This document shows, piece by piece, positions 16,395-16,470 of a stretch of 21,877 bases of DNA. Every line of letters starts with the position of its first letter. Positions within the stretch are counted from its first letter, which is position 1. The notes beneath the pieces were generated by a model. It was not told where the DNA came from, searched no databases, and worked only from the letters and a program-made list of their open reading frames with translations. The position numbers were made by a program, and so were the translations under genes. This DNA is from a virus (Duplodnaviria > Heunggongvirae > Uroviricota > Caudoviricetes): the IMG/VR virus record IMGVR_UViG_2695420643_000029; one strand, given 5' to 3'.

Positions 16395-16470
16395 GGCCCT
16401 TTAGCTCAGTGGTGAGAGCGAGCGACGCATAATCGCCAGGTCGCTGGTTCGAATCCAGTACAACGCGCCA
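16395..16470 (+). tRNA. tRNA-like element (Ile2/Met-type, anticodon CAU), possible pseudo-tRNA
   Basis: 76 nt ending CCA; D-arm GCTCAGTGGTGAGAGC, anticodon loop CGCATAA, T-arm GCTGG-TTCGAAT-CCAGT; 5' GGCCCTT and 3' ACAACGC acceptor strands do not pair. Confidence 0.5.

Follow-up and report, generated by a model that had tools for sequence, protein, structure and literature searches.

The tRNA-like locus downstream of the Q gene

The window analysed here is the whole 21,877-nt stretch of IMG/VR record IMGVR_UViG_2695420643_000029, and the element under study is a 76-nt tRNA-like sequence at positions 16395-16470. The element was originally predicted to lie downstream of Q, and the open reading frame ending at 16248 indeed matches the Pfam family DUF1133 (E = 3.6e-103) and, weakly, Phage_antitermQ (E = 1e-6); the homologue carries the PGAP label "DUF1133 family protein". 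The features that flank the element are the following.

15586-16248 (+): Q-type antiterminator gene of the DUF1133 family, by Pfam match (longest open reading frame; the true start is probably further downstream)
16330-16359 (+): intrinsic-terminator-like hairpin and T run after Q, tR'-like, recognised from its fold only
16357-16385 (+): promoter-like site, TTGCGG (16357-16362), 17-nt spacer and TATTAT (16380-16385), read from the sequence, putative in function
16471-16510 (+): argO 3' trailer and intrinsic terminator (hairpin 16485-16502, eight T), identical to the sequence downstream of argO in E. coli TUM11356 (locus L002)

Terminators had been predicted on both sides of the element, and both were recovered. 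The downstream hairpin (16485-16502) with its eight T was listed by a pattern scan and folds at -13.8 kcal/mol (z = -4.2), and the upstream hairpin (16330-16353) with its T run, which folds at -13.1 kcal/mol (z = -2.7), was identified by fold only and was not listed by the scan. The TTGCGG-17-TATTAT site fell below the threshold of the same scan and was likewise not listed. A G+C-rich stretch of 9 nt separates TATTAT from tRNA position 1.

Downstream of the element, Rfam models identified STnc100 at 16547-16740 (+, 141.8 bits) and AgvB, an anti-GcvB sRNA, at 16741-16802 (-, 96.5 bits), the latter identical to the model consensus. The region 3' of Q and PR', in which the element lies, is described by Tree et al. 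2014 (PMC4104026) as a moron insertion site with convergent small RNAs, and the convergent STnc100/AgvB pair directly downstream of the element corresponds to the arrangement given there for the moron site. Two open reading frames in this region, 16406-16606 (-) and 16494-16655 (+), had no significant Pfam match and were regarded as spurious.

An element with tRNA arms and no acceptor stem

The 76-nt element reads GGCCCTT TA GCTC AGTGGTGA GAGC G AGCGA CGCATAA TCGCC AGGTC GCTGG TTCGAAT CCAGT ACAACGC G CCA. As had been predicted, it is tRNA-like, has a CAU anticodon and ends in CCA, and in place of a seven-base-pair acceptor stem the strands GGCCCTT and ACAACGC form pairs at two of seven positions; the best shifted register, with GCCCTTT starting at 16396, gives four of seven. 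The D, anticodon and T arms, which had been described as intact, are paired in the Rfam alignment, and both the D-loop GG and the T-loop GTTCRA are present, but tRNA position 33, a T in intact ileZ copies, is G in the element (16427), and the T stem is closed by a G.U wobble (16443/16459). An A27.C43 mismatch in the anticodon stem is inherited from intact ileZ.

Among tRNA finders, ARAGORN called 0 tRNA genes in the whole window and the same was found for the identical locus L001, while in an intact ileZ-argN-argO cassette it called all three genes. The Rfam tRNA model (RF00005) matched the window at 16401-16460 only, over model positions 7-64 of 71 (37.3 bits, E = 1e-4), a match that comprises the three inner arms without the acceptor stem; the intact relatives ileZ and argO score 72.5 and 70.1 bits, respectively, over the full model. 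The high-scoring intact tRNA that would have spoken against the original prediction was thus returned by neither program. A permissive Rfam scan of 16370-16520 gave, besides the partial tRNA match, TarB and Trp leader hits at chance level and far under their thresholds, and no family except tRNA reached threshold in this interval.

Folding of the 76-nt element was no better than chance when compared with shuffled sequences (z = -0.97; z = -0.87 with flanks), whereas intact ileZ gave z = -4.0. Other pairing partners for the acceptor strand were sought from 40 nt upstream to 80 nt downstream of the element, and no convincing helix was found; the best candidates were CCGTTAT at 16376 (five of seven pairs), and GCGGGCC at 16496, which is located inside the terminator stem, and GGCGGTT at 16528 (six of seven pairs each). 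The element thus lacks an acceptor stem and U33 and is not detected as a gene by a tRNA finder, features by which a tRNA is defined, and it should not be filed as tRNA-Met or as ileZ.

The element joins the 5' part of ileZ to the 3' part of argO

Intact relatives of this locus carry three tRNA genes. In E. coli TUM11356 these are ileZ (3040-3115), argN (3123-3199) and argO (3213-3289), and in phage Stx2a_WGPS8 (L003) the gene order is Q, ileZ, argN, argO and then stx2A. In these two genomes the intact cassette occupies the place that the element has in the window, preceded by Q or a methyltransferase gene and followed by the STnc100/AgvB pair or stx2. Since STnc100 also follows the intact cassette in TUM11356, the downstream arrangement was unaltered by the deletion described below. 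Intact phage copies of ileZ are named tRNA-Ile by PGAP.

BLAST searches of complete E. coli genomes and phage records showed that, in records annotated tRNA-Ile/tRNA-Arg/tRNA-Arg, the query matches as two pieces spread over approximately 330-340 bp and not over 165 bp. Alignments and a position-by-position comparison showed that positions 1-64 of the element equal ileZ except at 33 and 57, the latter being a T-loop base that varies among intact ileZ genes; identity to ileZ begins in the upstream flank and, position 33 excepted, runs through the first T-stem base. The last 27 bases (positions 50-76) are identical to argO of TUM11356, and this identity continues through the trailer and the terminator. 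Neither gene accounts for the element over its full length. In the last 12 positions, 65, 67-71 and 73 differ from ileZ, whose 3' strand AAGGGCC and discriminator A are missing, and the body is not that of argO, as there is no TCT anticodon and the anticodon arm equals that of ileZ. Judged from these alignments, the element is the 5' part of ileZ fused within the T arm to the 3' part of argO, apparently after the loss of 174 bp of an ileZ-argN-argO cassette. Its parts are as follows.

16395-16443 (+): ileZ-derived part, comprising the 5' acceptor strand, D arm, anticodon arm (CAT), variable loop and first T-stem base; identical to ileZ of TUM11356 except at position 33
16427 (+): T-to-G substitution at the nearly invariant U33, seen in the alignment
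16444-16458 (+): crossover interval CTGGTTCGAATCCAG in the T arm, common to ileZ and argO and bounded by discriminating positions on either side
16459-16470 (+): argO-derived 3' end, comprising the last T-stem base, ACAACGC, discriminator G and CCA; identical to argO of TUM11356, as is the sequence from position 50 on

The alignment to ileZ-type tRNAs that had been proposed for locating a breakpoint was decisive. The G at 16443 is specific to ileZ (argO has A) and the T at 16459 is specific to argO; the crossover therefore lies within CTGGTTCGAATCCAG (16444-16458). With a parent ileZ of the TTCAAAT form, as in TUM11356, the crossover would be confined to CTGGTTC (16444-16450); TTCGAAT is also present in some intact ileZ alleles, such as that of E. 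coli EC556 (L006). In the intact cassette, the T arms of ileZ and argO are 174 bp apart, which is the size of the deletion. The acceptor strands of the element do not pair because one is that of ileZ, whose partner is AAGGGCC, and the other that of argO, whose partner is GCGTTGT; the element has kept the 5' acceptor bases of ileZ, and their pairing partners have been replaced by argO sequence. Similarly, the G.U closure of the T stem arises because its two strands derive from different genes. A decayed or recombinant phage tRNA and the fossil of a recombination junction, which had been raised as separate possibilities, prove on this alignment to be one and the same thing, an ileZ/argO fusion further decayed by the U33G substitution. 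Chance similarity was considered as well and is excluded by the 64-base match to ileZ, with its two exceptions, together with the 27-base identity to argO.

The promoter-like layout was found upstream of every ileZ or hybrid copy examined, even in EC556, where the upstream region is otherwise unrelated. The -35-like motif varies among these loci (TTGCGG, TTGCAG, TTTCGG and TTGATT) and is followed by a 16-17 nt spacer and TATTAT, the last base of which is 9 nt away from tRNA position 1. Such conservation suggests that the cassette may have its own promoter of the stable-RNA type.

Other rearranged versions of the cassette were also observed. In EC556, the intact ileZ is followed by an unannotated argN remnant at 1552-1631 of L006 (T arm and 3' strand, ...GGTTCGAGTCCTCGGTGGCGGTCCA) and then by tRNA-Thr and tRNA-Gly genes. 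In E. coli CUVET20-416 (L029), a degenerate, unannotated argN is located between ileZ and argO at 451-550; it starts with CCGCCATTAGCTTATC and ends with GATGGCGGTCCA, and its middle is scrambled.

Distribution, annotation and sequence constancy

The distribution of the hybrid was assessed with a 56-nt junction query, of which intact cassettes can cover only about two thirds, and matches were counted at a coverage of at least 80%. By this measure 162 of 5,426 complete E. coli genomes carry the junction; most of them are STEC, with O157:H7, O121, O111:H8 and O145 strains represented. Among the full matches listed, nearly all are 100% identical to the query. The exact 32-nt junction was also found in 22 IMG/VR contigs, as prophage, and was absent from all 50,697 deposited phage genomes and from all 185,579 species-representative genomes. 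Of the 5,426 complete E. coli genomes, 3,016 contain ileZ-like sequence, and the hybrid carriers among the matches listed have 4-10 ileZ-like copies each, so that the loss is redundant for the host. No published account of the hybrid was found in the literature on ileZ, argN and argO.

In all matches listed, PGAP labels the hybrid tRNA-Met, without a pseudogene flag. The feature annotated in O121 strain RM8352 is 71 nt long and corresponds to window positions 16400-16470; it begins at tRNA position 6 and so lacks the 5' acceptor strand. Features of 71 nt named tRNA-Met were found for both types of hybrid (see below), at positions equivalent to 16400-16470 of the window and at 3071-3141 of L001, 2569-2639 of L004 and 2546-2616 of L005. 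The isotype call falls back to tRNA-Met because the acceptor stem is missing. Mislabelled scars of this kind inflate tRNA counts and misstate the decoding capacity supplied by prophages, and the main yield of the present analysis is practical, in that the annotation of over 160 RefSeq genomes can be corrected.

All 24 of the fused loci of the window's type (type A) that were retrieved, with a pattern that excluded position 33, carry G33. The G33 version was found at an identity of at least 99% in 160 complete E. coli records, compared with 162 that have the junction, and all 40 listed represent the fused form; the mutation, being confined to fused copies, is therefore private to the hybrid. 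The 76-nt body was unchanged in 22 of the 24 retrieved copies, and a G-to-A change in the D-loop GG was found in 2 of the 24. The copies are located between at least three upstream and at least two downstream types of flank, which are approximately 10-15% divergent. The upstream hairpin found in the window is absent from hybrid copies behind a methyltransferase gene and belongs to this type of flank, not to the tRNA cassette.

While the constancy of the hybrid body could be read as conservation, it would be equally expected from a recent origin and from crossovers with intact cassettes within tRNA-identical segments. It was not read as selection because intact cassettes show the same pattern, and because crossovers with co-resident prophages in the segments identical to ileZ or argO swap the flanks and spare the body. 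As a separate observation, some fused copies (L005, at about 2617-2626, L007, L013 and L027) have a 5-nt duplication, CCACA, right after the CCA, and their trailer and terminator have diverged.

A second fusion of the same kind

Another ileZ-argO fusion, designated type B, is known from individual examples only, namely E. coli APEC O2-211 (L004), strain 504838 and three IMG/VR contigs. It keeps T33 and has the T loop TTCAAAT, the 3' strand ACAGCGC and a different trailer, and its crossover lies in AATCCAG. The parent of type B resembles the cassette of CUVET20-416, in which ileZ is accompanied by a degenerate argN and by an argO allele that ends in ACAGCGCGCCA-TATTCATTC. By hand count, its acceptor strands form five of seven pairs in a shifted register; ARAGORN calls a tRNA, the Rfam score is 47.2 bits, and this hybrid is also annotated as a 71-nt tRNA-Met. 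Type B and the hybrid in the window both result from a deletion between T arms in a cassette of this type, but differ in the junction, position 33, the trailer and the parent cassette. Since both the junction and the parent cassette differ, a T-arm to T-arm deletion has occurred at least twice, and the ileZ-argN-argO cassette has been repeatedly eroded by recombination between its T arms.

Proposed origin and fate of the transcript

The ancestor was probably a three-gene cassette, ileZ (tRNA-Ile, CAU)-argN-argO, carried after the Q antiterminator gene by Stx and related lambdoid phages. We infer that recombination between the near-identical T-arm sequences of ileZ and argO removed 174 bp, which would have comprised the 3' end of ileZ, argN in its entirety and the first two thirds of argO. 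The promoter-like site, 5' strand, D arm and anticodon arm of ileZ would have been kept and joined to the T-loop, 3' acceptor strand, CCA, trailer and terminator of argO. The U33G substitution and occasional further changes presumably came later and would fit a loss of constraint, and the mosaic recombination that is usual between prophages may then have distributed the scar among those of STEC.

Transcription of the hybrid probably persists, starting at the promoter-like site that it has kept or entering from upstream through Q-dependent read-through. Together, the promoter-like site and the argO terminator would predict a primary transcript of approximately 115 nt. The acceptor/T-stem helix is required by RNase P, by the enzymes acting on the CCA and 3' end, by TilS and by the aminoacyl-tRNA synthetases. 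The hybrid RNA, which lacks the acceptor helix needed by RNase P, TilS and the synthetases, should therefore be neither matured nor charged. Most likely, the transcript is unprocessed, unstable and functionless, and is probably degraded.

Comparison with known systems places this locus next to the ileZ-argN-argO cassettes of Stx2a_WGPS8 (AP012540), phiP27, phage 2851 and Nil3, which, like the hybrid, are located between the Q/methyltransferase region on the upstream side and the moron site and lysis genes on the downstream side, and which have the same upstream promoter-like site. Unlike these cassettes, the hybrid is without the 174 bp and none of the three tRNAs survives; its acceptor strands are mismatched and U33 is G. 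A close cellular counterpart, E. coli tRNA-Ile2 (ileX/ileY type, in which the CAU anticodon is modified to lysidine), has the same anticodon and should be closely similar in its D, anticodon and T arms. In contrast to tRNA-Ile2, the hybrid lacks the acceptor stem that, as is established, TilS and IleRS read. The tandem tyrT/tyrV genes of E. coli provide the classical case of hybrid or deleted tRNA genes formed by unequal recombination between similar neighbours. There, as here, recombination at short identical stretches removes the interval and leaves one hybrid gene, but in the present case the partners belong to different isoacceptor families (Ile and Arg), and the homology is only 7-15 nt. 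With partners from the Ile and Arg families, the hybrid is therefore most likely non-functional. It adds a new and specific case to a known class of events, namely unequal recombination between neighbouring tRNA genes.

Alternative explanations

Taking all of the above into consideration, the element is very probably a recombinant, non-functional tRNA pseudogene, and nearly all of the doubt that remains concerns its function and not its origin. The hybrid might have been co-opted as a small RNA, with the unmatured tRNA-like RNA of about 115 nt serving as regulator or sponge, or as a decoy for enzymes that target tRNA, such as TilS or anticodon nucleases. Such a role would be consistent with the intact promoter-like site and terminator, with the identity of the hybrid body in several flank contexts and in 162 genomes, and with a location in a known prophage small-RNA hot spot, where STnc100 and AgvB lie immediately downstream (Tree et al. 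2014, PMC4104026). However, the promoter-like site, trailer and terminator are inherited from the intact cassette and give no sign of a new function, and neither the 76-nt body (z = -0.97) nor the body with its flanks (z = -0.87) has a fold beyond chance. Moreover, mutations strike conserved tRNA positions (position 33 in all copies and the D-loop GG in some), the two independent fusions differ in sequence, the hybrid is in no deposited phage genome, and the element is not mentioned in the consulted part of Tree et al. 2014 (PMC4104026). Co-option is thus considered unlikely, and no support was found for the earlier suggestion of a tRNA-derived regulatory or processing element. It appears decidedly unlikely that the uncharged, unmatured, tRNA-shaped RNA accumulates in lysogens and there titrates TilS, a modification enzyme, an anticodon nuclease or a toxin, or pairs with another RNA; if this were true, it would represent a selectable trait for STEC prophages and would explain the spread across flank types. 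A new biological question would arise only if the hybrid RNA proves stable and active.

Taken at face value, the RefSeq label tRNA-Met would make the element a functional tRNA whose acceptor stem is atypical. PGAP gives identical copies this name and does not flag them as pseudogenes, the Rfam score (37.3 bits) exceeds the gathering score of 29, and the three inner arms are present together with the 3' CCA; nonetheless, the acceptor strands pair at two of seven positions, or at best four of seven when shifted, the annotated 71-nt feature starts at position 6 and has no 5' acceptor strand, ARAGORN finds no tRNA, the Rfam match is local to model positions 7-64, and U33 is replaced by G. The CAU anticodon in an ileZ-type body is that of tRNA-Ile2, which needs lysidine, and the acceptor-stem pairs that are established to be read by TilS and IleRS are missing from the hybrid, which makes a working tRNA highly unlikely. 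A very improbable origin is an attachment-site scar, in which a mobile element, having integrated at a tRNA 3' end, would have left part of the gene duplicated. Although integrases often target the T arm or 3' end of tRNA genes and the breakpoint does lie in the T arm, both halves here come from genes of one cassette between which 174 bp are simply missing, the downstream trailer and terminator are those of argO, and the vicinity contains neither inserted DNA nor an integrase gene, nor is the tRNA 3' end repeated there in direct orientation. Finally, short-read assemblers can collapse repeats with common T-arm sequences, and a sequencing or assembly artefact could in principle have merged two similar tRNA genes; yet the shared sequence is only 15 nt long, 162 complete genomes of different serotypes, most of them long-read, share the junction with 22 IMG/VR contigs, and the junction is linked to the private mutation G33, all of which renders an artefact extremely unlikely.

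Read as a recombinant pseudogene, the hybrid combines one junction with one private mutation and thereby offers a clean, datable marker for recombination among co-resident lambdoid prophages.

Other features of the prophage

The sole sigma-70-like site listed by the pattern scan in 16000-17000 is located inside the 3' end of the Q gene (16183-16212, TTGGCA-18-TATATT). Together with the hairpin at 16330-16359, this site, which was recognised as a consensus match only, would give a transcript of approximately 135 nt resembling the lambda PR'-tR' RNA.

The window represents a mosaic lambdoid prophage rich in regulatory RNAs. Prophage small RNAs reaching the gathering score are RalA (1557-1735, +), C4 antisense RNA (6584-6671, -), IsrK (6696-6772, -) and DicF (6999-7049, -). 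A toxin-antitoxin locus of the hok/sok type is found at 14009-14334, with a sok RNA (120 bits) and a 70-aa open reading frame with a Hok/Gef domain (14122-14334); just upstream, an open reading frame of 385 aa (12842-13999) encodes HTH_3 and IrrE-like Peptidase_M78 domains. Downstream of the small RNA pair, an open reading frame of 648 aa (16950-18896) has DUF1737, SASA (sialate O-acetylesterase) and DUF6645 domains and represents the esterase-type moron gene that follows this pair in many STEC prophages.
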